From positions 2,112,001 to 2,176,000 of the forward strand of contig CAWETU010000001.1 in assembly GCA_963812135.1 (NCBI GenBank): DNA of 64,000 nucleotides, given 5' to 3'. The DNA is from Vulcanimicrobiota bacterium (GTDB lineage: Bacteria > Vulcanimicrobiota > Vulcanimicrobiia > Eremiobacterales > Eremiobacteraceae). Position numbers and translations under genes: made by a program. The notes beneath the pieces are model-generated. The model did not search any database and was not told the DNA's origin. It saw only the letters and a program-made list of their open reading frames with translations. Below are positions 42,548-56,514 of this stretch, one piece after another. Each line of letters starts with the position of its first letter. Within the stretch, counting starts at the first letter, position 1.

Positions 42548-45500
42548 ATGCAGCGATTCGAACCGACCGAGCAACAACGGGCCGTCATCGACCACCGGGG
42601 CGGCCACGCACTCGTCTTCGCCGGCCCAGGCACCGGCAAGACCGAGACGCTTGCTCGGCGGTTCGCTTCGTTGGTGGTGGACGACGGCGTCGACCCGAGC
42701 GCGATCCTTGTTTTGACCTTTTCTCGGCGCGCCGCGGAGCAGATGCTCGAGCGCGTGGTCCAGCGCTTGCGCGAGCGCACCAGCAAAGAGCTGGCGGTGA
42801 GCGAACTCTTCGTGCGCACCTTTCATAGCTTTTGCGCCCGGCTGCTCGACGGCGACGGTCCGCGCTTTCGCGAGCGCAATCTGCTCAGCCCGATCAAGGA
42901 GCGGCTTCTTTGGAAACGCGTGGCGGCGCGCGTGCCGCTGCGCTCGTTCGATCCCGAGGTTCGTACAAGCCCGGCGTTCGCCGCCGACGCGCTGAACCTG
43001 ATCGCGCAGCTCAAAGGGCAGGGGCTGAGCCCGTCGGACGTCGAGGACGCGGCCAAGCGCGACGGCCGCTTGCACGACATCGCTGCGCTCTACCGCGAGC
43101 TTGACGCCGAGCGCAGGCGATTGCGCTTGTCAGATTTCCGCGATCTCGTCAAGGACGCGCTCGACGCGCTGACGCTGCCCGACAGCCCCGCGTCACGCTG
43201 GCTGCACGCGCGCAGCGGTTTTGCGCACATCCTGGTCGACGAGTTCCAGGATAGCGACGCGCTGCAACTGCGTTTGCTGGAGATCTTGGCCGGACCTCAC
43301 CGCAACGCAGCGCATCCGGTGCCGGAGATCTGTTTCGTCGGTGATTTCAACCAATCGATCTATCGCTTTCGCGGCGCCACGCCGAAGAACATCGAGATCG
43401 TGCGCGAGACCTTCGCCTGCCGCGAGCTCACGCTCGATCTCAACCGGCGTTCGGCGCAAGCGATTTTGGACGTCGCCAATGCGACGCCGCAGCTCAAGCC
43501 CGAATCGCTGACGCAGGCGGAGAATCAGTCATTGGAAGGCAGCGTGCAGCTGCGGCGCGCGACCGATCCCGACAGCGAGATCGCGCTCGTCTGCGACTCG
43601 ATCGCGGCGCGCGTCCGGGCGGGCACGCCGCCCGGAGAGATCGCCGTGCTGCTGCGCGTGAGCGAGCCCTATCAGAGTTTGATCGTCGGCCAGCTCGATG
43701 CGCGCGGTATTCCCGTCGCGGCGCGCCCGTCGGCCGGTTTTCTCGAGGATCCGGTGATCGCCGCAGTGCTCGACACGATCCGGCTCACCGCAGACCTCGA
43801 GGACTTCGACCGCTGGACGCGCGTGCTCACCAATCCGCTGATCGGCTTTGGCCAGCTTTCGGTCAGTCTCGCGTTCGATGCGGCGCGCCGCTTCGGGATG
43901 CGCAACGCGTTTGTCGCGCTACGCGACAATCCGCCGTCCGGGCGGCTTGCATTCGAGGATTTCTTGCGGCACTGGCGCGCGGTCGAGGCAGAAGCGCGTT
44001 CGGAAGAAAGCGACATCGCGTCGCTGATCGCGACGATCGCACGCGAATTCGACCTGTTGCGGCCGGTGCGCTCTGGCGATATCCCGCCCGGCTGGGACCC
44101 GCGCTCTTCACCGGCTCGCCTTGGTTCGCTGGTGGATGCCGCGCGCGACCTGCAGTCGATGGCATACGTGTTGGGCGACGGGCGCATCAGGCCCGCGGAA
44201 TTTGTCGACAGCATTGAGGAGGTCGCAGGGCTGCTTGGGGATCCGACGCAGATCCCGCCACTGGATAGCGGCGGCGTCCGCGTGATGTCGATCCATGCCG
44301 CCAAAGGGCTTGAGTTCGATGAGGTGGTCATCCCGCAGGCGATCGACGGCGTGCTTCCCCAGCGCGAACGCGGCCACGCATTGCTGTCGAACGCCTCGGT
44401 GCGCGCGCTGCACGCCAAGGCGGCGACCTTTGTGGCGACGCCCGAAGAGGCATATCAAGAGGAGTGCTCGCTGTGGTACGTCGCGCTCACTCGCGCGCGC
44501 CGCCACGTGCTGGTCACAGCGGCGGAAGCGGACGCCGACGATATCGAGCTGCCGCTCTCGGTGTTCGCGCATGCGATCAAGGACGCTGCAGCGGCGCCCG
44601 CGCTTCGCTCAGGCGCGGGACTCGAGCTGCGCTCGGGTGCCGGTCGAATCAATTCGACCGCTGCATTTGTGCCCGTGCAGGAGCGACGACCGCTCACCCA
44701 TGTCATCGATCACCTGTCGCCCACCGGCGTGGGAACCTTCCTCGCGTGCCCCCGGCGCTTCTTCTATAAGGAAGTATTGCGCTTGACTCGAAGACCGCGA
44801 TGACGAAGGAACGCTGCTCGGACGATTGTTGCACCGTGCGCTCGCGGCATTCCATACCGAGGAGCGCGTGTTCGGCCCCCGGCCCGATCTGGACGCTTGT
44901 CGCGCGCGTTGGAGCGAGTCGCTCTCCACGTTGGCCGAGGCCGCCGCCGGCACGGTGGCGACCGAAGCGGGTTTCGCGCCGGATTCGAGCTTCATGCGCT
45001 ACCAGCTCGCGCTCGCGCGCCAATATCTGGCGGACTACGCGGCGCACCTCTCACGTGAGTCTATCGCCGCGCCGTTTGAGGTGCTCGCGTGCGAACAGCG
45101 ATTGGAAGCGGAGATCGGCGGCGTGCGCTTCACCGGTCAAGCCGACCGCATCGATCGGCTCGCGGACGGCACGCTGGCGATCCGCGACTACAAGAGCGGC
45201 AGACGCTATGGAAAGCTTGCGGTCGCAGTCCGCAAGGCGTTGGAGCGCATCGACAACGGCGAGCAGCTCGCGGGCGATGCGCCCGAGGGGCTCAACCTTC
45301 AGCTCTTGCTGTATATGCCGGGCGCGCAGGCGCTCTATGGGGCGCCCGTTTCGCGCGTCGAGTTCATCTATTTCCGCGGCGAGGGCGAGGGGGACGGATT
45401 GCTCGCCGATACGGTCCAGATCGTCGCGGATGGTTCGGCGCGCGCGTCGGATAACACGCTCACCGCGGCGGAGGCTCACCGCGCGCAGACCGAGATCGCG

Positions 45501-45626
45501 GCTTCAGTCGCCGCGGCGTGCGCGGACGGCAGCCTGGACGCGTTCGTCACCGCCGTCGACATCAAGACGTGCCGCTTCTGCGGTTTCGTGCGGGCGTGCC
45601 CCGGCCCGTTGGCGGTCGCTCAATGA
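42548..45626 (+). CDS. UvrD/SF1 helicase + PD-(D/E)XK Fe-S nuclease (AdnA/AddAB-like), +1 frameshift at ~44786
   Basis: AGPGTGKT, TFSRRAA, VDEFQD, GDFNQSIYRFRGA, IHAAKGLEF, YVALTRAR; nuclease CPRRF, ADRID, DYKSG, QL..Y, CRFCGFVRAC. Confidence 0.88.
44641..44665 (-). repeat. intragenic in-frame REP copy (2 mismatches)
   Basis: CGGTCGAATCAATTCGACCGCTGCA, encoding GRINSTAA. Confidence 0.85.
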
Positions 45627-48600
45627 ATCCGATGTTCGATTTCTCATCGAATCCGATTTCGACCGAACAGCAGCTCGTGCTCGAGCACCCTATCGACAAG
45701 CCGGCGCTCGTCGACGCAGGTGCGGGCACCGGCAAAACGCACACGATCGTCAATCGCGTGGCGTATCTCCATGAGAGCGGGCTGTGCCGCGCCAAAGACA
45801 TCTTGTTGCTCACGTTCGCGCGCAAGGCCGCCGCCGAATTGCGCAGGCGGACGTTGGCGCGCCTTGGCCCGACGATCGAGCCCCCGCATTGCTCGACCTT
45901 CCACGGCTTCGCGTCAAGCCTGTTGCTGGAGCATGCCTACGATCTCGGCGTGTCGCCGGACAGCACCGTTATCGAAGACGTCGACGCGCGCCTCGAATTC
46001 CGTGCTGCGATGGACGACGTCATCCATAACCCGCACGCGGATGCCCACGCGTTGCCGCTGCGCTCGGCTCGGCGCGACGATCTGCGCGCCGGTCTGTTCG
46101 CGATCGCACAAGAGCTGAAGGAACAGGACATCGAGATCGACGCATTCGAGCGACAAGCGCTCGCGGCCGCCTCGTCGATCGAATCGATACCGTATCGCGA
46201 GATTCACAAGCGCACCGAGGGCGGCAGCGTCTCGTCCGTCACGCAAGCGCACACGACCGACGAGGGGCTGCGCCGGGAAGTAATGGAGGCGCAAGCACGC
46301 GTGCGCGCCGCGGCCGCGATCTTCCGCCGTTATCACGAGCGCTTAGCGCGCCGTTTTGCGCTCACGTACGCAGACCTCTTGCGGCTCGCGCGCCGGGGCA
46401 TCGAAGAGGATCCGAAACTGGCAGCGGAGCTGCGCGGCCGATTCCGGCATTGCATCGTCGATGAGTTCCAGGACACCAACGACGCGCAGTGGCGGTTCTT
46501 GCAGACGCTCTTCGGCGCCGGACTCGAGCGCGTCACGGTGGTCGGCGATCCGCGCCAAAGCATCTTCGGCTTCATCGGCGCGACGCCGGCGAACATCGAG
46601 CGCTTCGGTTCGACCGCCGGCGCCAAGCGATACGCCCTGTCTGAAAACCGGCGCTCGCGCCAAGAGATCCTCGATCTGGCGCACGCGATCATCCGGCAGC
46701 AATCGGACGACGCCAAACCGTTGGCGGCGAGCAGAGGAGCGTCGGGCTCCCCCAACGTCCATGTGTCGAGCAGATGGGCGACCCCGCAGCTGCCCCGTCC
46801 GCGCGCGGAGCAGAATCGCCACGCGCAGGCGCGCGCAGTGGCGGCGCGCATCAAGACGCTGCTGTCCGGCGGGATGCCGCCGCAACATATCGCGATCCTC
46901 ACGCGCAACAAGACGCAGATCCAAGCGTTCACCGCGGCGCTGGTCGCCCACGACATCCCGTTCCGGCTGCTCGGCGGCGCCGGATTCTACGAGACCGCCG
47001 AGGTGGTCGACGCACTGGCGTGGCTGATGCTGCTCTCAAACCCGCTCGACGGCCAGGCCGTGGCGCGCTTGTGCGCATCCCCAGCATGCGGCTTGTCCGA
47101 CGCGGCGATGACGACGCTGGCCGCGGGGCTCGACCGGGATGACTCGGCGTTCGCGCGGCGCGCGCTCGTCGAACCGATACCCGAGACTCTGGATCCCGAC
47201 AGCCGGCGGCGCCTCGAGCGTTTGCGAGCAAATCGTCGATGCGATCGAACCGTACGCCTCGGCGTCGCTGCGCATCGCGTTTCCGGAGATGCTCGCGCGC
47301 ACCGGGCTGTTCGAGACCTACGCGCGCAGCGGCGACACGCAGGCGACGGCGAACCTGCTCAAACTTGGGAAGCTGGCGACGGCCTTCGTGGAGCGCAACC
47401 GGGAAGCGCAAGCCCGCGATTTCGTGCACTATATCGAAGAGCTCAAGCGCATCGACTTCGACGACCGCGAAGCGGATCCGCCGGCGAGCGATGCGGTCAC
47501 CGTCATGACGATCCATGCAGCCAAAGGATTGGAATGGCCGGTCGTCTTCGTCATCGACGTCTGGCCACGCGTCTTCCAGCCGCCGATGATCTGGCGCGAT
47601 CCGCTCACCGGCGCGCTGCTGTGCATGGAAGGCGCGGACGGCAACAAGCCGTTTCATGCCGTGGCGGCCAAACTGCGGCCTGATCACGAAGGCATCGCGC
47701 CGCACGAGACCGAGCTTGAGGAAAGCGAGCGCGACGCGGAAGAGCGCAGGTTGTTCTATGTCGCGTTGACCCGCGCGCGCGACGAGCTCTACATTTTGGG
47801 CGGCAGCCAGTACAGCGCGAAAAATCCCGGCGGCAGGCCGCATGAGTTCATCGCCGAGATCGAGTCATGGATGACTATCCGGGGCTGGCCGATCGACGAG
47901 CCGGTACCGGTCGGTTGAAAAAGTCGGTCGAATAAATTCGACCGCTACAGACAGCGCGGAGGACGGTCGAATAAATTCGACCGCTACAGACGGCGCGGAG
48001 CACGGTCGAATACATTCGACCGCTACATCCAAGCCGGCGTTGCCGCCGCTCTCCTTCTCCACCTTGCGCGCGTTCGAGCGCTGTCCGCGCAGCATGACCT
48101 ACGCCGCGATCCTGCGCCTGCCGGACTTGCGCCGCCGCAAACCGGAAGCATCCGACGACGCGCTCGCCGAGGCGATCTCGGCCGACGGCGAGGACGCCGA
48201 TGCGCTGCTGGCATCCGATCGCGGCCGGCTCGTGCACCGCGCGCTCGAACGTTGGGCGCTGTCACAGATCGACGGCGCGCCGAGCGATTCGGCTGCTGTC
48301 TACATCGCCGCGGCGGCGACCGAGTTCGCATTGCGTCTGAAGGGGAACGAATTGAAGGAATCGATCGAGGACGTGCGCGCCGCGATCGACGGGCTGCGCG
48401 ACTGGCGGGTTGTGCGGGCCGAAGCGCCGTTCGTGATGCAATTTGGCGACGCGGTCGTCACCGGTTTCATCGATCTCATCGCGCTCGATGACGCGGGCCT
48501 TCCCGTGATCCTCGACTACAAGACAGGAACAACACCCGTTTCCGAATACGCCTTGCAGCTGGGAATCTATCGCGAGGCCGCGATGCGCGCTTATGGCGTG

Positions 48601-48807
48601 CGCGATCCTCGCTGTGCGATCGGCAGGTTCGAGGGCGGCCGTTTCACGATCGAGATGATCGATGCGCCGGCCGAGCCAGACGTACGAGCGCGTATCGGCG
48701 CGGTCGCGGCGGGCCTGAGCGCTACCGACATTGAACCGCGGCCCGGACGATGGTGCTACACGTGCACGTATCGAGCGGCACCCTGCGATGCGTACCCGCA
48801 CTCGTGA
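45623..48807 (+). CDS. UvrD/SF1 helicase + PD-(D/E)XK Fe-S nuclease (AdnB/AddAB-like), +1 frameshifts at ~47228 and ~47913
   Basis: ATGA overlap; AGAGTGKT, VDEFQDTN, GDPRQSI, TIHAAKGLEW, EERRLFYVALTRAR; nuclease CPRS, GFIDLI, DYKTG, QLGIY, CYTCTYRAAPC. Confidence 0.88.
47925..48027 (-). repeat. three tandem REP copies, 39-bp period, in frame with the nuclease domain
   Basis: Copies at 47925, 47964 and 48003, encoding GRINSTATDSAED-GRINSTATDGAEH-GRIHSTAT. Confidence 0.92.
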
Positions 48808-48810
48808 TCA

Positions 48811-50256
48811 TCATCGCCGCTTTCGCGAGCTCGATCCGCGCGGTCCCTCGGTCCCTTTAAGCGAGGCGAGCGGCTCGAGTTCGTACTCGATCTCCGCCAG
48901 GCCCGCGTTGACGACGCAATCGACCACCTCGCGCGCCGGCTTATAGCATGGGCCGGATTCGTCGATCGGCACGCGGTTGTCAGCGTTGACCAAGATTCCG
49001 GCCGCGCGATAGCGATCCTCGATCTCGCGACGATCGAGGCATTGTATCGCGCGCGAGCGTGACAGCCGGCGGCCGGCGCCGTGATTGACGGAGAAGCCGC
49101 TGTTCTTGGCTGCCGGCAACGGCCGTAGGATGAAGCTGGAATCGAAATTGCTGCCCGGGATCAGCACGGGGTGGCCGGTCTGCTCCCACATCGTGCCCTT
49201 GAGCGCTGGATGCCCTGCCGGAAACGCGCGTGTCGCGCCTTTGCGATGCACCCATACCTGGCCGAATTCGGGGTGCTCTTCGAGCTGCACGAGATTGTGG
49301 CTGATCTCGTAGATCAACTCGAGCGGCTCGCCGAACGTCTCTTCGAACGCCGCGCTGAGCTGTTCGTAGATGATGAGCCGATTGATGATCGCGAAGTTGC
49401 CGCCCGCTGAGACGGCGTTGAGGTATTGCCCGTGGTGGCGCGAGTCGGGCGTGAAGTGACCGAGGTCGAGCTGTGTGTTGCGGTCCGGCCTTTCGGCCTG
49501 CGCAAGATCGAAGTAGTTCGTCGCGAGACCATGGCCGAAGCCGCGGCTGCCGGTGTGCACCTGGACGAACAGCGTATCTGTCTGGATGCAGCGCTGCAGC
49601 TCGATGAAGTGATTGCCGCCGCCGAGGCTGCCCAGCTGTTTCACGCCGCGCTCGGGCCGTCCGCGACCGCCCCATGGGATCTGCCAATCCTCATCGACCG
49701 GCAAGCGATCGCGCTCGGTGCGGCTGCGGTCGACGTTCGAGCGATGATCCGCCATGTAGCATTCCGCGCCGCCGCGCACTAGGCGTTCGAATTCGTTCTC
49801 GCTCAGGCCGGCCAGCGCGCGGCTCTTGCCGCCAGCGCCCATCTCGATGCGCTCGATCACCGCGCGGTTGAACTGCAGGCGCTTGTCCGGCGTCGCCTCG
49901 CTCACCGGCACGTTCGATCTTGCGGAGATCATGCCGCAGCCGATATCGTAGCCGACCGGACCCATCGCGACGGCGCCGTCTTTGGCATCGGTGAGGATGA
50001 CGCAACCGACCGGCACGCCGTAGCCTGAGTGGACGTCGGGGGTGATGACGACGAGCTTCACGCCCGGGAATGCGGTCGCGTTGAGCACTTGCTGGTAGAC
50101 TGTTTCGTCGATGTCCGCCAGCAGCGCGTCGCTCAGGAAGAAACGCACCTCCGTGCCGCGTGTCGCGTCGGTGCGCAACGAATAGAACCCGCGCTCGTCG
50201 CGGCGCAGGTCGTCCATCCACGCCGGCCGTGCGGCGTTGCTCACTTCTTCGGACAT
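48811..50256 (-). CDS. rtcB: RtcB family RNA ligase
   Basis: PDVH.GYG.PVG, GYDIGCG, GSLGGGNHFIE, HTGSRG, SHN, HRKGATRA, NHGAGR, DE...YK. Confidence 0.92.
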   Translation of the reverse strand: MSEEVSNAARPAWMDDLRRDERGFYSLRTDATRGTEVRFFLSDALLADIDETVYQQVLNATAFPGVKLVVITPDVHSGYGVPVGCVILTDAKDGAVAMGPVGYDIGCGMISARSNVPVSEATPDKRLQFNRAVIERIEMGAGGKSRALAGLSENEFERLVRGGAECYMADHRSNVDRSRTERDRLPVDEDWQIPWGGRGRPERGVKQLGSLGGGNHFIELQRCIQTDTLFVQVHTGSRGFGHGLATNYFDLAQAERPDRNTQLDLGHFTPDSRHHGQYLNAVSAGGNFAIINRLIIYEQLSAAFEETFGEPLELIYEISHNLVQLEEHPEFGQVWVHRKGATRAFPAGHPALKGTMWEQTGHPVLIPGSNFDSSFILRPLPAAKNSGFSVNHGAGRRLSRSRAIQCLDRREIEDRYRAAGILVNADNRVPIDESGPCYKPAREVVDCVVNAGLAEIEYELEPLASLKGTEGPRGSSSRKRR

Positions 50257-50699
50257 AGGCCAGGCGGGATGGTGAGCGTGAGCGTCAGTTTGTTGTTGTC
50301 AAAGGTGTATTCATCGAACCATGGTTTCGCGTTCACGGAGACGAGGAATTCGTGTTTCCCGCTGACGCCGGGCCGGCCGGGCAGATCGATGCGCACGGCT
50401 TGGGTCTGGCCGACGCCGATCGTGCCGAGCGTCGCGCCAGCGGTCCACCAGATGTCGGTGGTATCGGTGACGGTGACTGCTTTGTCCTCGGGGATCGGCT
50501 GGCTGTTGATGCTGCCGATGTTGGTCACCCGCAGCAGAAACGAGATCAGCGGCTCGTCAGGCGTGCAGCGCGAAGCGATGACGTAGCCGGGACCGTCCGG
50601 CGGGTTTGGCCCGACGGTGAGGTCTGGTTGAGCACCAAGCGTCGCGCCCGAAGGGAAGCCGGCGGCGAGCGCGGTCGAGGCGGTTGCGAGGAGAGTCAA
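50241..50699 (-). CDS. exported CARDB/Ig-like protein, start uncertain
   Basis: PDLTV, V.N.G, E...DNN motifs and a hydrophobic signal. No in-frame ATG after the upstream stop; TTG 50699 used. Confidence 0.6.
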   Translation of the reverse strand: MTLLATASTALAAGFPSGATLGAQPDLTVGPNPPDGPGYVIASRCTPDEPLISFLLRVTNIGSINSQPIPEDKAVTVTDTTDIWWTAGATLGTIGVGQTQAVRIDLPGRPGVSGKHEFLVSVNAKPWFDEYTFDNNKLTLTLTIPPGLCPKK

Positions 50700-50713
50700 C
50701 GCCAGCGCGATGA

Positions 50714-50738
50714 CGGTCGAATAAATTCGACCGCTACA
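50714..50738 (-). repeat. REP copy
   Basis: Exact consensus between the methionine synthase stop and the CARDB-like gene. Confidence 0.9.
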
Positions 50739-50742
50739 TTTG

Positions 50743-51756
50743 CTAAGAGTTGGCAAGGGCCACGCCCGCGCCGAGCGCCTGCAGTTTAGCGTACGCGACA
50801 TCGCGGCGCATCGGTGCCATCCCGCAGTTGGTGGACGCGATGATGCGATCGTCCGGCAGATAACCGCGTGCGATGTTGAGCGTGGCAAGGACGTCTTCCG
50901 GCGTCTCGACATAATCCGTCGCGACATCGATGACCCCGACGGCCGCATCCTTACCGACAATAGCGCCGAGGACATGCGGCGGCACGTGCGAACCCGCAAG
51001 CTCGATCGAGATCTCATCGATGCGCGTCCTCGAAAGCAGCGGCAACACCCGTTCGTACTGGTCCCACGTCGCGCCGAGCGACTGTTTCCACTCGATATTG
51101 GCCGCGATACCATAGCCGTAGCAGACGTGGACGGCGGTGCGGCAAGCCGCGTCGCGCACGCAGGCATCGATCGCCTCCATGCCCCATTGCTCGGCTTCGT
51201 CCAGATACGCGTTGAGCGCCGGCTCGTCGAGTTGCACCGTGTACACCCCGACGGCTTCGAGGCTGGCGATCTCCTCGCGGATCAGATCCGCAAATGCGAG
51301 CGCCAGCGAACGCCGGTCGCCGTAGTGCTCGTCGTACACCGTGTCGACGATCGTCATCGGTCCGGGCAGCGTCACTTTGAGCCGCCGCTTGGTGTGGCTG
51401 CGCGCGAACGTCGCTTCGTCCAGGTGCACGGAACCTTTGCGGCGCACCGGCCCGGTGATCGTGGGCACGTCCGCCTTGTAGCGGTCGGCGCGAATGCCGC
51501 GACGCGTCATCTTCGAGAAATCGACCCCATCGATGTGCTCCAAAAAACCATGCACGAAATGCCGGCGCGACTGCTCGCCGTCGGTGACATAGGTGAGGTT
51601 CGCCCGGTCTTGCTCGAAGAGCGCGATGCGCGTGGCGTCGCGCTTTGCGTCGGCCAGTTCCGCGCCGTCGAGTTGCCACTGCGGCCACAGCTTTTCGGGT
51701 TCGGCTAGCCACACCGGCTTGGGCAAGCTGCCGGCGATGGTCGAGCGGATGTCCAC
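50743..51756 (-). CDS. core (folate-independent) methionine synthase, MesD-like
   Basis: 337 aa, MetE C-terminal domain only; AGSLPKP.WLA.PE.LW..W, DGEQ.R.HFV..F, LPGPMT..DT.YD.HY, HVCYGYGI.AN..WK..LG..W.QYE, TNCGMAP. Confidence 0.85.
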   Translation of the reverse strand: MDIRSTIAGSLPKPVWLAEPEKLWPQWQLDGAELADAKRDATRIALFEQDRANLTYVTDGEQSRRHFVHGFLEHIDGVDFSKMTRRGIRADRYKADVPTITGPVRRKGSVHLDEATFARSHTKRRLKVTLPGPMTIVDTVYDEHYGDRRSLALAFADLIREEIASLEAVGVYTVQLDEPALNAYLDEAEQWGMEAIDACVRDAACRTAVHVCYGYGIAANIEWKQSLGATWDQYERVLPLLSRTRIDEISIELAGSHVPPHVLGAIVGKDAAVGVIDVATDYVETPEDVLATLNIARGYLPDDRIIASTNCGMAPMRRDVAYAKLQALGAGVALANS

Positions 51757-51760
51757 GACG

Positions 51761-52216
51761 CTAGACGCGCGTTTTGCCGGCGGTCGCCGCGTTGCGCTCG
51801 AGGCGCGCGACGTCGTCGGGCGTCGCGGGTTGTGCGCGATCGCGCTGCGCGTCGACGATGCAGAGAAAGCCGAACGGCGCGTCGCCGGTGTTGACGAATT
51901 GATGCAACGTCATCGGACCGACGTAGATATGATCGAGATTCTCGATGGGGTGCACGGCGTCGCCGACGATCGCGTAACCTTCGCCGCGGATCACCGTCAC
52001 CGAATGGATGTGTTCGTGGCGTTCCAGGCGGGTGAAGCCGCCGGGCTCCACTTCGAAATAGCGCAGCTGGAACTGGGAGGGCTCGCCGTTCGCGCCCGAG
52101 ATGATGTGGCGCGTGACGCCGCGGAAACCCTCGCCGTCGCTCTCGCCGGTCGCCTTGTAACCCGCGGCCTGGACGCCTTCCCACGAGAATTCACTGGAAT
52201 GGAATTTGTGTTTCAT
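51761..52216 (-). CDS. cupin, similar to MTXu-5P methylsulfurylase of the MTA-isoprenoid shunt
   Basis: W.GV...YK, F..VTR, LRYFEV.PGG...LERH.H.H.V, HQF, GFLC.V.A.RD..Q. Confidence 0.7.
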   Translation of the reverse strand: MKHKFHSSEFSWEGVQAAGYKATGESDGEGFRGVTRHIISGANGEPSQFQLRYFEVEPGGFTRLERHEHIHSVTVIRGEGYAIVGDAVHPIENLDHIYVGPMTLHQFVNTGDAPFGFLCIVDAQRDRAQPATPDDVARLERNAATAGKTRV

Positions 52217-53298
52217 GCGCGCCCCGGATAGACGATGACTTTGAGCGCGTCCGTGCCGGCGGCCACGAGACGATATGCTTGCGCGATATCGGCGAGACCA
52301 AAACGGTGGGTGACCAGCGAGCGCAGCGGCAGACCGTCGGCGAGGAGCTCGAGCGCTTCGCGCGTGTCGTTCGGCCCCGCGGAGTAGCTCGTGATGACGC
52401 TGATGTCTTTGAAATAGAAATCGTGGACGGGCAGCGGCCAGTATTCGGTCGCTTGCGTGGGCGTGAACAGCACGATCTTGCCGCCCGGTGCGACGCACAA
52501 CGCGGCTGCGCGCATGGCTTCGACCGAACCAGGCCCGACGATCACGACGTCTGCGCCCTCGCCGTCGGTGGCCGCCAGCACCTGTTCGTGCAGCGGCGAA
52601 TGCTCGATGTCGAAGGCGTGATGGACGCCGTGCTCTCTGGCCGCGTCGAGGCGCGCGCGAACCCGATCCGCGCCCATGATGAGCTCGGCGCCGCGAAAGC
52701 GGGCGAGCGCGACGTGCAACATACCCATGACGCCAAGACCGATCACCAGCACGCGGTCGCCGGCGCGCAGGCCGCTACGGCGGATCGACTTCACGACGGT
52801 GGCCAGCGGCTCGACCATGGTGGCGAGGTCGTCGTCGAGCGAGTCGGGGATGCGCAAGACATCGGCGCGCACGCTTTCCGCCGGCACGATCGCGTATTGC
52901 GCCATGCCGCCAGGGCGCAGTCTGCTGCTGCGCCAGGTCTCGCATTGGACATAGTCTTTGCGCTTGCAGCGCCGGCAGGTCATGCACGGCGCGTGATGGT
53001 GGACGAAGACGCGCTCGCCCGCGGCAAAGGGGATAACGCCGTTCCCGTGATTGGTCGATCCGTTCGCGGATGGAGCCGCGCCTTCGCCACACGCCTCGAT
53101 GACCGCCACGGGTTCGTGGCCGAGCACGAAGGGGGCCTTACGATCGTTGTACCAGCCCATCACTTCGCCGGGGCAGATGCCGCAGGCGGTGACGCGCACC
53201 AACAGTTCGCCGTGTTCGAGGGGGCTGAGATCGACGTCGCGCACGTCTATGTCGCCGCCCTTTTGATAGACGGCCGCTCGGGTGGTTGTGGGCAACAT
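52213..53298 (-). CDS. Zn-dependent medium-chain dehydrogenase, sorbitol/iditol dehydrogenase-like
   Basis: CGIC, GHE, CMTCRRC..C, GLGVMG; ATGA overlap with the cupin. Confidence 0.9.
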   Translation of the reverse strand: MLPTTTRAAVYQKGGDIDVRDVDLSPLEHGELLVRVTACGICPGEVMGWYNDRKAPFVLGHEPVAVIEACGEGAAPSANGSTNHGNGVIPFAAGERVFVHHHAPCMTCRRCKRKDYVQCETWRSSRLRPGGMAQYAIVPAESVRADVLRIPDSLDDDLATMVEPLATVVKSIRRSGLRAGDRVLVIGLGVMGMLHVALARFRGAELIMGADRVRARLDAAREHGVHHAFDIEHSPLHEQVLAATDGEGADVVIVGPGSVEAMRAAALCVAPGGKIVLFTPTQATEYWPLPVHDFYFKDISVITSYSAGPNDTREALELLADGLPLRSLVTHRFGLADIAQAYRLVAAGTDALKVIVYPGRA

Positions 53299-53370
53299 GG
53301 AAGCTCTTAGGTTCGCGCTCGCGCACGCATCCCCCCGCGCTGCAGCAGCACAGGGGGACACGGTTAAGCC

Positions 53371-54006
53371 TTAAGCGATACCCGACTTGAGCGCGTACAC
53401 CGCGGCCTGCGTCCGCGCGGTGACGTTGATCTTGCTGAAGATCCGGCTGATGTGGTTCTTCACGGTTTTTTCGCTCAGATACAGCTTGCCGGAGATCTGC
53501 CGATTGGACAGGCCCAGCGCGATCAGCCTGATGACTTCCGTTTCTCGCTCGGACAGCTCGGATGGGTCGTTGCGCAGCCGGCGATTGTTAAGCCGCCGCA
53601 ACATGTTGCCCGCAAGACTCGGATCGACGTACACGTTGCCGTCGAAGATCGAAATCAGCGCACGCGCGAGGTCCTCCATCGCGATGTCCTTGACGACGTA
53701 GCCCTCGAGGCCGAACAGAAGGCTGCGCGTGAGCAGGTCTTGCTGGGGCTGCATCGAGAGAATGCAGATCTTGGTGCCCGGACATGCTTCGCGCATGTAC
53801 TTGATGGCCTCGACCGGGTCGCCTTTGTGAAAATCGACGTCGAAAAGTATGACGTCTGGCCGGCTCGCGGCGGCGGTCTCGACATCGCTCATGCCATTGC
53901 ATCCAGCAACCGTCACAAAGCGATCGTCGGCCATCAACAACTGACAAATGGCTTTGCGGAACAACACCTGTGGCTCGATGACCGCTATTCGCACTCGCTC
54001 ACTCAT
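53371..54006 (-). CDS. NarL/LuxR family response regulator
   Basis: Receiver (ILFD, YVVK) + LSERE..V..L...GLSN..I...L.LSEKTVKNH. Confidence 0.92.
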   Translation of the reverse strand: MSERVRIAVIEPQVLFRKAICQLLMADDRFVTVAGCNGMSDVETAAASRPDVILFDVDFHKGDPVEAIKYMREACPGTKICILSMQPQQDLLTRSLLFGLEGYVVKDIAMEDLARALISIFDGNVYVDPSLAGNMLRRLNNRRLRNDPSELSERETEVIRLIALGLSNRQISGKLYLSEKTVKNHISRIFSKINVTARTQAAVYALKSGIA

Positions 54007-54358
54007 GGTAGAAAGCTCCGAGTCTAAAGCTCCAAAAGAGGGCTTGGGCAGGCACCCCGGGGGAAACGAAACTCATCCGAATCCATCCAATCTCGGGATT
54101 CGGGACGCTTGGCCGCACCCAGAACGCGGTTTTTTTCTATTCTACGGCTTTTTTAATGTAGCCGACCCGTGCCGGCGCCCCAACGACGTTGGGATGTCAC
54201 ACTTGTAGAGTAACGTGTATCACATATACAGGTACTCCGAACACCCCGTAAACACGGCATTTGGGTCTGTTTGTCCAGGTTTTCAGTGCGAAGGGTCACG
54301 AAATTGGGACTTTCGGGTCATACCGGGGGGACGGTCATGACGCTAACGGAGCTTCGCT

Positions 54359-54991
54359 TTGGGTACAGGAAAAGAGTCGTTACCCCCAATTCGATCGGAG
54401 TCTAGCGGCCCGGTTGATTTTGACGCGCGCCTGGATTCTGACGGGCGCGTCGACTCGGCGCTCGAGGGAGCGATCCGGCGGCGTGAGATCGCAGCCATCG
54501 TCGTCGATTCGGACAACGGCGTGGCGCTTGCCAACGCTCCAGGGATCGAGCAGCTCAAGCTTTTGGCTCCGCAGGGGATGGTGCGCCAGGGCCTCCCCCT
54601 ACCGGAAGACGTCGCGCGACTCGCCGACGGACTGCGCGACGATCTCAAGCGCACCGGATCGACGGAATCGTCGCAGCTGACGCTTGCGAGCGGCTTTTGT
54701 CTGCGCGCTTCCCTTTTGGGAGGACAGACCAAACCGTATCTGCTCATGCTGTTCGAACCGGCCTCGCGGCTGGACGAGCGCAACCTGTCGCGCAGAGAGC
54801 TTGAAGTCGCGACGCTCATCCTCAACGGGCTGTCGAATCGCGAGATCGCATCGAAACTGTCGCTGGCCCCCAACACCGTCGAGGGACACCTCAAGCGCAT
54901 CTTCACGAAGATGCAGGTGCACACGCGCGCCGGTCTGGTGGCGAAGATGCTGGGATGGCCGTCTGAGGGCAGGCCGGACGCGACCGCTTAG
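54359..54991 (+). CDS. LuxR-type HTH regulator without receiver domain, start uncertain
   Basis: LSRRE.EV..L...GLSNREIA..L.L...TV..H...IF.K. ATG 54337 lies one base out of frame. Confidence 0.8.
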   Translation: MGTGKESLPPIRSESSGPVDFDARLDSDGRVDSALEGAIRRREIAAIVVDSDNGVALANAPGIEQLKLLAPQGMVRQGLPLPEDVARLADGLRDDLKRTGSTESSQLTLASGFCLRASLLGGQTKPYLLMLFEPASRLDERNLSRRELEVATLILNGLSNREIASKLSLAPNTVEGHLKRIFTKMQVHTRAGLVAKMLGWPSEGRPDATA

Positions 54992-54994
54992 CGC

Positions 54995-55435
54995 TTAGCG
55001 CCCGCCCCCACGCCCGACCGCTCGCGCGCCCGCAAGCGCTCCGCCGATCGCGCCTCCGATAAGACCGCAAACCACATCGAATGATTGCTGGGCCAGCGTC
55101 TCGTGCGCGCCCGAATACAGCCATTGGCCGAGTTCGATGAAGGCGCTGTAGAGACCGACGCCAAGCGCGATGCCGAGTACGCTTCGGAGCGAGCGTCGCA
55201 CGTGCAGCGTCCGCGCCAGCACGAACCCGATCAGCGCGAACGCGACGACGCTGTACGCTTTGCGCAGCAGCACATGGAACGTCAACCACGATGGCGAGGT
55301 CGCCTCGTACGCCGCATTGGAGATCGCGACGGCGAAGAGGCCGATCATGAGCGTCGCGCACAACACGGGCCACAACCACGATCGAGAGCGCGACGGCGGG
55401 TTCACTAAGCCGGAATTGACTGCAGCGGGGCGCAC
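54995..55435 (-). CDS. VanZ-like membrane protein
   Basis: LRK.YS..AF..G, S..IE..Q, D...G..GG..G. Confidence 0.7.
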   Translation of the reverse strand: MRPAAVNSGLVNPPSRSRSWLWPVLCATLMIGLFAVAISNAAYEATSPSWLTFHVLLRKAYSVVAFALIGFVLARTLHVRRSLRSVLGIALGVGLYSAFIELGQWLYSGAHETLAQQSFDVVCGLIGGAIGGALAGARAVGRGGGR

Positions 55436-55581
55436 GTCCGCTTTTGCGCGCCGTCAAGCACCATAGGCCCTTCGCATGGGACCTCTGGACCGCCGACCGA
55501 AAGTCAAGCGGGCCGACAGGCCTGCGTCGAGGGGGCGTTACGGTTCTTTGGCGCCGACCAGGCCTGGAGTAAGATGGGCCT

Positions 55582-56514
55582 GTGTTGGGTTTCCTCTTCG
55601 CGCTTGCCGTGCTCGGCACGTCCGCGGCATCGCCGGTTCCGTCCCTTCCGTCGCTTCCATCCACTCCCGGAGTCCAGGCGCCGCAAGATCCCGGACCGAG
55701 CAACGAACCATATCGCATCCATGCGGCCGATCAGCTCGCCGTGGAGGTGTTCGGCGACGCGACGCTCTCGCAGACAGTGACGGTTTTGCCAGGCGGAGAC
55801 ATCTTCTATCCGCTGGTCGGCCGCATCCATCTCGACGGGCTCACCCCGGAGGAAGCGGCCGCGCGGATCGGCGGCGCGCTGCACAAATATGTCCGCCAAC
55901 CGATCGTCACGGTCTCAGTGGTCGCGCAAGGACCGATCGGCGTGCTCGTGCTCGGCGACGTAAAAAATCCCGGCAAGTACCTGCTGCCTGCGACATCGCG
56001 CGTCTCTGACGCGCTGGCGGCTGCGGGCGGACTAGCGCCGATCGACGGCGACTTTCCGATCGCCCGAATCGCCAGCGTTTCCGGCGACATCCATCAGGTC
56101 TCGCTGCAAAAACTCTTCCACGACGGGGATACGTCGGTCGACATGCGTTTGGCGAACGGCGCGACGCTCTACGTGCCCGCACCCGCGCTGTTCAGCGTGG
56201 AAGTGCTGGGCAGCGTCGACCGGCCGGGCGAGATCATGCTGCATGAAGGCGACAAATTGGCGATCGCGATCGCCAAAGCCGGCGCGAGCCCGAACACAAA
56301 CCCCGATCTCAACAACATCCAGGTGAAACGCACCATGGCGGACGGCAGCACGGCAAATTACACGGTCAACCTGTATCAAGCGCTGAGCAGCCAAGACGTC
56401 GCCAAAGACCTGACCATGCAAAAAGGCGACATCGTCTACGTGCCGCAGGCGAAGAAGCCGATGGGCAACGGTTTGTTGGGCATCTTCACGACTTTGCTCT
56501 TGCTCGTCAAGTGA
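55582..56514 (+). CDS. wza: polysaccharide export protein (Wza-like, SLBB domains)
   Basis: YRI...D.L.V.VFG, V.PGG.I.YPLVG, V.V.G.V..PG.Y, GDIVYVP. Confidence 0.85.
   Translation: MLGFLFALAVLGTSAASPVPSLPSLPSTPGVQAPQDPGPSNEPYRIHAADQLAVEVFGDATLSQTVTVLPGGDIFYPLVGRIHLDGLTPEEAAARIGGALHKYVRQPIVTVSVVAQGPIGVLVLGDVKNPGKYLLPATSRVSDALAAAGGLAPIDGDFPIARIASVSGDIHQVSLQKLFHDGDTSVDMRLANGATLYVPAPALFSVEVLGSVDRPGEIMLHEGDKLAIAIAKAGASPNTNPDLNNIQVKRTMADGSTANYTVNLYQALSSQDVAKDLTMQKGDIVYVPQAKKPMGNGLLGIFTTLLLLVK

Follow-up and report, generated by a model that had tools for sequence, protein, structure and literature searches.

The locus described here raises the question of what a cupin of the Rru_A2000 family does when it is encoded between a Zn-dependent medium-chain dehydrogenase (ADH) and a core (folate-domain-less) methionine synthase homologue. 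The three genes lie in a stretch of 64,000 nt, hereafter the window (contig CAWETU010000001.1 of assembly GCA_963812135.1, positions 2,112,001 to 2,176,000), from a soil-type bacterium represented by an Eremiobacterota metagenome-assembled genome (MAG) of 2.79 Mb in 6 contigs (98.4% complete). The parts come from known families and their arrangement fits neither known system, the cupin standing without a RuBisCO-like protein (RLP) and the MesD-like synthase without MesX. The answer favoured here, at a rough probability of 0.4, is that ADH and cupin form an RLP-independent, dehydrogenase-fed version of the methanethiol-releasing methylthioadenosine (MTA) shunt; on the simplest reading the synthase is a co-expressed methionine-supply gene and not an obligatory partner.

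The three genes are tightly coupled on the minus strand, as an earlier sequence-only reading of this DNA had stated: the cupin ATG and the ADH stop codon overlap as ATGA (the junction reads ...GCATGAAACAC...), and the synthase GTG stands 4 nt (cgtc) past the cupin TAG. The cupin (Pfam Cupin_2) was matched in the PDB to 3IBM (1e-33), to 3JZV, which is Rru_A2000 (7.1e-29 over residues 7-146), and to 3KGZ (7.9e-28), with the next PDB family at 43 bits only, and the likeness to the Rhodospirillum rubrum enzyme proposed in the earlier reading was thereby confirmed. Rru_A2000 and RPA2170 are 1-methylthio-xylulose-5-phosphate methylsulfurylases of the MTA-isoprenoid shunt, with 1-deoxyxylulose 5-phosphate (DXP) and a glutathione-SCH3 adduct as products (PMC5893883, PMC4334135, PMC6302742). 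The motifs LERHEHxH, HQF, GFLC and RDRPQ are common to 39 ADH-linked and 18 RLP-linked cupins. All longer cupin homologues found (26/26) were cupin-RLP fusions, at 41-45% identity, and the cupin directly follows an RLP gene at L131 (same phylum) and in 6 of 16 neighbours tested in metagenomes, as well as at the 18 loci of the RLP-linked cupins; because RLP-cupin pairs are found elsewhere, the RLP and dehydrogenase contexts look like alternatives. The natural cupin-RLP fusions (P0121-P0146) are ~522 aa long.

Of 401 genomes sampled across the phylum, 253 encode a cupin of this kind, and the best 30 of the loci were fetched, 26 from one Eremiobacterota family (f1) and 4 from its sister family (f2), with neighbour adjacency across loci scored by tblastn. 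ADH adjoins the cupin in 25 of the 26 fetched f1 loci, the contig ending inside the cupin in the 26th (L095), and in none of the 4 fetched f2 loci. The order of the f1 operon is a HIBADH-like gene, sometimes a solute-binding protein (SBP_bac_5) gene, a second Zn dehydrogenase (ADH2), ADH and cupin, after which the operon is met convergently by an AddA-type helicase; ADH2 is directly upstream of ADH in 10 of the 14 loci with enough flank, and 7 of these 14 clusters include the HIBADH-like gene. What is conserved across this one Eremiobacterota family is the ADH-cupin pair, in many cases with two further dehydrogenase genes ahead of it. In the genome studied here, orthologues of ADH2 and the HIBADH-like gene (81-82% identical to the operon copies of G227) were located 34 kb away from the trio, in the same orientation, and both genes are absent near the trio in the congeners G071 and G087; the ancestral operon is broken up in this genome. 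Tallies of the cupin, the synthase, MetE, RLP and MtnA include unpublished genomes (ADH-cupin loci L096, L105 and L109; synthase row L170), on which no conclusion rests.

ADH carries the Pfam domains ADH_N and ADH_zinc_N, and by eye its translation shows the catalytic Zn site (Cys...GHE), the four-Cys structural Zn site and a GxGxxG site. It reached no NCBIfam equivalog cut-off, the best being Tdh (129.7 bits against 458) and IolM, and the closest solved structures were xylitol dehydrogenase 7Y9P, threonine dehydrogenases and ketose reductase 1E3J. A match to ketose reductase was obtained for ADH2 too, and the HIBADH-like (beta-hydroxyacid dehydrogenase-like) gene product is nearest to tartronate-semialdehyde or sulfolactaldehyde reductases.

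The genome carries MtnP (303 bits against a cut-off of 275), MtnA (425 against 279), the O-acetylhomoserine sulfhydrylase MetY (623.6 against 495) and Dxr (385 against 316), and gave no match to RuBisCO_large/RLP, to Aldolase_II (the family of MtnB and Ald2) or to ARD. Among 31 f1 genomes, MtnA was present in 26 and RLP-sized hits in none, the only 3 RuBisCO hits scoring 441-451 bits, like true RuBisCO; Aldolase_II was found in 1, at a marginal 23.4 bits. By gene content, the f1 lineage thus appears to make methylthioribulose-1-phosphate while having none of the three known types of enzyme that consume it (RLP, MtnB/Ald2). The gene overlapping the end of mtnA, its downstream neighbour, was considered as a salvage enzyme and identified as holA.

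Since MtnA-bearing f1 genomes are without a known consumer and encode a methylsulfurylase-family cupin behind dehydrogenases, an RLP-independent shunt is proposed. In this route MtnP and MtnA would make 5-methylthioribulose-1-phosphate, and NAD(P)-dependent dehydrogenases would move its carbonyl, C2 being reduced and the carbon beside the CH2-SCH3 end oxidised, to give a 1-methylthio-2-ketose (an alpha-methylthio ketone), with a phosphate or none. The cupin would pass the methylthio group to a thiol, yielding a 1-deoxy-ketose (DXP if phosphorylated) and methanethiol, and MetY would turn the methanethiol back to methionine, so that MetY and Dxr would be the outlets. The dehydrogenases would do the job of the RuBisCO-like isomerase in Rhodospirillum. 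The RLP reaction is formally a carbonyl shift from C2 to C4, which a ketose reductase and a polyol dehydrogenase could match via a methylthio-pentitol; the nearest solved relatives of ADH (xylitol dehydrogenase, ketose reductase) oxidise the carbon beside the terminal CH2X of polyols. The earlier proposal of a redox step on a methylthio-sugar ahead of the cupin fits the conserved ADH-cupin operon. We infer the substrates, the order of the steps and any coupling to the synthase, starting from gene identities, packing, conservation pattern and pathway gap that were directly observed.

Several observations weigh against this proposal. In a quick, midpoint-rooted tree of 67 cupins, the 18 RLP-linked cupins fall on one side of a branch of length 1.3 (SH-aLRT 99), the other side holding the ADH-linked and trio cupins together with long-branched stand-alone f2 cupins, so that the window cupin lies outside the RLP-linked clade and its substrate may differ from that of the RLP-linked cupins. 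Some conserved positions differ between the two sets as well, e.g. HQFVN in ADH-linked against HQFRA in RLP-linked cupins. The expectation that this cupin would group with the methylsulfurylases was accordingly borne out in the shared motifs but not in its placement on the tree. The four genomes with stand-alone f2 cupins contained no RLP (G011 serving as positive control), and the three with fetched loci had no adjacent ADH, so neither partner is strictly required nearby. MtnA and MtnP are at least 1 Mb from the operon, with no mtn gene nearby; the presence of a solute-binding protein gene within some of the operons suggests that the substrate may be imported; and 'methylthioribitol', which would correspond to the pentitol intermediate, was not found in the literature searched. 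The family counts, finally, were drawn from MAGs that are related and in part incomplete, and they are not independent observations.

The stand-alone f2 cupins (L128:6214-9158, L129:6500-8865, L130:6561-8336) are flanked by glutaredoxin or rhodanese genes on one side and an EVE-domain gene on the other, and, besides their long branch, carry HEHEH and GFYC variants of the motifs.

Features at and around the trio (window positions unless a contig is named)
Feature	Position	Strand	Remarks
Zn-dependent medium-chain dehydrogenase (ADH), polyol/threonine-dehydrogenase type	52213-53298	minus	361 aa, ATG start
Cupin, Rru_A2000 family	51761-52216	minus	151 aa
Core (folate-domain-less) methionine synthase homologue	50743-51756	minus	337 aa, GTG start
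NarL/LuxR-type response regulator	53371-54006	minus	Response_reg and GerE domains
AddA/AddB-type helicase-nuclease, several open reading frames	42548-48807	plus	UvrD_C 47139-47918, PDDEXK 48040-48807
RtcB RNA ligase gene	48811-50256	minus	between the helicase-nuclease genes and the trio
HIBADH-like gene and ADH2 orthologues	contig C1 2199599-2201526	trio strand	~24 kb past the window end

Among the flanking genes, the response regulator shares the strand of ADH and lies directly upstream, at 72 nt from the ADH ATG; it may act as a regulator, and no counterpart was seen at this position in the relatives examined. The RtcB gene begins 486 nt downstream of the synthase, and relatives have the helicase directly after the cupin. 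The G+C content of the window is 60-69%, and a promoter and terminator scan of 50000-54600 returned nothing useful.

The strongest competitor holds that the cluster serves ordinary polyol or sugar-acid catabolism, with the cupin acting as an isomerase or another non-sulfur enzyme and the synthase brought beside it by a meaningless rearrangement. We consider this unlikely, though to be taken seriously. Its three dehydrogenases, relatives of xylitol dehydrogenase, ketose reductase and tartronate-semialdehyde reductase, are of sugar/polyol and hydroxy-acid type, and the solute-binding protein of some operons and the cupin branch apart from the RLP-linked one would both suit it. It would also accommodate the scrambling of the operon within the genus, where ADH2 and HIBADH have moved off or are not near, and the Rfam scan of 48000-56000, which returned no match at E up to 1 and hence no riboswitch or methionine-related signal upstream. 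It leaves unexplained, however, that the only close relatives of the cupin with a known function are methylsulfurylases, that every fusion found is to RLP and that the Cys-containing GFLC motif and RDRPQ are kept; the stand-alone cupins of the sister family, moreover, have the sulfur/thiol proteins glutaredoxin and rhodanese as neighbours, and the gap after methylthioribulose-1-phosphate needs filling.

A second competitor keeps the sulfur chemistry and changes the substrate. The substrates of ADH and cupin would be small methylthio-alcohols taken up from outside, for instance 2-(methylthio)ethanol, ADH producing an alpha-methylthio aldehyde from which the cupin releases methanethiol; this would supply the enzyme missing from an aerobic shunt of the dihydroxyacetone phosphate (DHAP)-methanethiol type or from a scavenging route. 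We hold both the reaction and this role for it to be doubtful. We know of no enzymes assigned to the aerobic conversion of 2-(methylthio)ethanol by Rhodopseudomonas palustris, an alpha-methylthio aldehyde would carry the reactive unit of the known cupin substrate, and the ADH partner, the occasional solute-binding protein and the presence of MetY all fit. R. palustris does convert 2-(methylthio)ethanol aerobically to methanethiol, but its cupin knockout retains that activity (PMC5893883). Further, no class II aldolase was found in the genome that would make methylthioacetaldehyde internally, ADH resembles polyol rather than short-chain alcohol dehydrogenases, and two further dehydrogenases would be left over.

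The remaining competitor concerns the third gene. The synthase contains Meth_synt_2 only (Pfam) and scored 454.8 bits against a cut-off of 392 with NF006589 (PRK09121, 'methionine synthase'), a profile that does not separate MesX-linked from MesX-less proteins; a weak Meth_synt_1 folate-domain signal (18.4 bits, below the cut-off of 27) was rejected. It aligned over its full length with 3RPD (2.2e-108, 365.8 bits), a structure treated as MesD by Price, Deutschbauer and Arkin 2021 (PMC7857596). The Zn ligands (His-x-Cys, Glu, Cys) H210, C212, E252 and C311 and the homocysteine-binding residues S10, E61 and D177 do not vary among 42 aligned relatives and align with 3RPD, the roles of these residues being taken from section 5 of the same paper (PMC7857596). 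Both the MetE catalytic domain with its H-x-C and C ligands and the resemblance to MesD proposed in the sequence-only reading therefore held. The same source gives as the MesD similarity threshold to ACIAD3523 ~55%/390 bits by BLASTp or 560 bits by phmmer (PMC7857596); the window synthase, compared with 3RPD and with three MesX-adjacent MesDs rather than with ACIAD3523, is 49-51% identical to the latter three, and these values and the 365.8 bits to 3RPD suggest a similarity short of that threshold.

MesX (DUF1852, PF08908) was found neither in the window, for which its absence had been claimed earlier, nor in the rest of the genome, the 401 phylum genomes or 5 other carriers of MesX-less synthases; as positive controls, the profile was found in 2/201 and 1/300 genomes of two proteobacterial classes. 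NF006589 proteins were present in 86 of the 401 phylum genomes (77 above the cut-off), mostly as stand-alone genes, and since these MesD-like enzymes occur without MesX, the published MesD/MesX model cannot explain them. None of 80 loci carrying relatives of the synthase (53-64% identity, species-representative genomes) had a cupin or ADH within 8 kb, and no MesX was found among the 89 proteins tested from their flanks. A tree of 124 rows, made by a quick search with three MesX-linked rows only and rooted on the C-domain of the genome's own MetE as a very distant outgroup, separates the 3 MesX-adjacent MesDs from 120 MesX-less proteins (branch 0.63, SH-aLRT 88). Within it the eleven trio synthases form one clade (support 100), nested in an Eremiobacterota clade (support 99) of otherwise stand-alone genes. 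As far as its sequence can tell, the synthase is an unexceptional member of a widely distributed MesX-less clade, uncharacterised and sister to MesD; it was relocated beside the cupin in one genus, and it is predicted to be a genuine thiol (homocysteine) methyltransferase of MesD type. No account of MesX-less relatives was seen among the papers listed since 2021 on the MesX/MesD methionine synthase.

Other genes recur beside members of this clade. A class-A flavin monooxygenase is directly upstream in 32 of the 80 loci (L020-L087, nearly all Alphaproteobacteria), with 3-hydroxybenzoate 6-monooxygenase as best match, below cut-off (e.g. L025:6790-8001, L072:6726-7925). Elsewhere the neighbours include TauD (L038), 2OG-Fe_Oxy_2 (L043, and in the fused protein P0152), a P450 (L028), a luciferase-like monooxygenase (L086) and a ring-hydroxylase beta subunit (L033). 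It may be that various oxygenases fill the place of MesX.

A MetE gene is carried by the genome as well (contig C5, around position 330,050), split in two overlapping frames at profile position ~190 (L140:3446-4288, L140:4041-5765); it is intact in 6 of 6 congeners, a similar split occurs in another few-contig assembly (G261), and the split is probably an assembly indel rather than a pseudogene. With MetE in the same genome, methionine synthesis need not rest on the trio synthase alone. A full-length MetH was not found in the genome, which does encode a fused homocysteine S-methyltransferase/MTHFR protein, and the only small B12-binding protein found, considered as a corrinoid methyl carrier, is the methylmalonyl-CoA mutase small subunit, so that this idea was dropped. 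In the 18 genomes of g31, another genus of this class (G201 among them), MetE was found in 0/18 and MetH in 18/18, most with a MesD-like gene, the pattern expected of a B12-independent back-up methionine synthase.

Adjacency of cupin and synthase was confined to genus g1, the genus of the window, where it was seen in 7/7 genomes; the whole trio is in one locus in five of these (including G278), and two are interrupted by contig ends. All 19 f1 loci outside g1, among the best 30 fetched, keep ADH and cupin and have no synthase, so that the synteny looked for holds for the dehydrogenase-cupin pair across the family and for the synthase in one genus only. In the sister genus member G041 the synthase is on another contig. 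In metagenomes the two genes are adjacent in 7 of 37 cupin-relative loci, with cupin identity at least 69% in all 7 and synthase identity down to 72% on the trio contigs; loci L181, L182, L186 and L187 have enough flank and no synthase after the cupin. A divergent G278 synthase copy (59% identity, one TAG) was considered as decay and set aside as uninterpretable, since the G278 assembly also fragments mtnA. The trio, being narrow and limited to the level of a genus, argues only weakly for coupling; it is a lead rather than proof.

These data bear on the idea, put forward in the sequence-only reading, that the methyl or methylthio group freed by ADH and cupin is handed directly to the synthase, which would give a self-contained path from MTA to methionine, the cupin step possibly replacing MesX as provider of the donor. 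The tight, operon-like spacing of the trio, the retention of every Zn and homocysteine ligand, the absence of MesX hits from the genome and the phylum sample, and the persistence of the adjacency through g1 and the 7 metagenome contigs would all accord with it. So would the oxygenases often found beside MesX-less relatives, the cupin being a common oxygenase fold, and the statement in PMC7857596 that the methyl donor of MesD-type enzymes is not known. Against it stand the restriction of the adjacency to one genus, its lack at 19/19 other fetched f1 loci and at all 80 loci of synthase relatives, and the separate location of the gene in G041. Because the trio synthases are nested inside a stand-alone clade, they form no specialised subfamily, and no fusion of the cupin to the synthase was seen among the 26 longer cupin homologues, nor of cupin or ADH among the 9 longer synthase homologues. 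The known cupin product, moreover, is a thiol-S-SCH3 disulfide or methanethiol (PMC5893883, PMC4334135), which enters methionine via MetY and not by methyl transfer. Direct hand-over is on this evidence improbable, and the earlier route survives in its three gene identities, in the absence of MesX and RLP hits and in the presence of mtnP and mtnA, but not in the feeding of the synthase. That the synthase takes its methyl from the thiol-S-SCH3 adduct or the alpha-methylthio ketone, the trio moving the MTA methyl straight onto homocysteine, we regard as very improbable. The role of the synthase is the least certain part of the account, tied as it is to the cupin only through genus-level adjacency.

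If the RLP-independent shunt is real, feeding a methylsulfurylase from dehydrogenases would add a fourth means of closing methionine salvage and would lead to methanethiol, possibly also to DXP, with no RLP involved. Were direct hand-over to be true after all, a physiological methyl donor would be known for the first time for a core synthase of MesD type. Two results are worth following: the family-wide dehydrogenase-cupin operon amid a salvage gap, and the phylum-wide clade of MesX-less synthases, whose members are often the sole B12-independent candidate beside MetH.

Three known systems can be set beside this locus. The closest is the MTA-isoprenoid shunt of Rhodospirillum rubrum and Rhodopseudomonas palustris, composed of MtnP, MtnA, a DeepYkr RLP, the cupin Rru_A2000/RPA2170 and an O-acetylhomoserine sulfhydrylase. 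Shared with it are MtnP and MtnA, MetY, the methylerythritol phosphate (MEP) pathway enzyme Dxr and a cupin of that family in which the motifs are kept; unlike it, RLP is missing from this genome and from the 31 family genomes, the cupin has Zn and beta-hydroxyacid dehydrogenases as neighbours, and the cupin itself is on a branch sister to the RLP-linked ones. With the polyol dehydrogenases of the medium-chain dehydrogenase/reductase (MDR) superfamily (xylitol/sorbitol, galactitol-1-phosphate 5-dehydrogenase and threonine dehydrogenase), ADH shares the fold and has its best PDB and NCBIfam matches, but it is far below all equivalog cut-offs and is linked to a methylsulfurylase-family cupin. 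With MesD, the core methionine synthase of the oxygen-dependent MesD/MesX system, the synthase shares its single Meth_synt_2 domain, identical Zn and homocysteine ligands and co-occurrence with another methionine synthase (MetE here, MetH in g31), and it differs in that no MesX was found with it and in belonging to a clade separate from the three MesX-adjacent MesDs.

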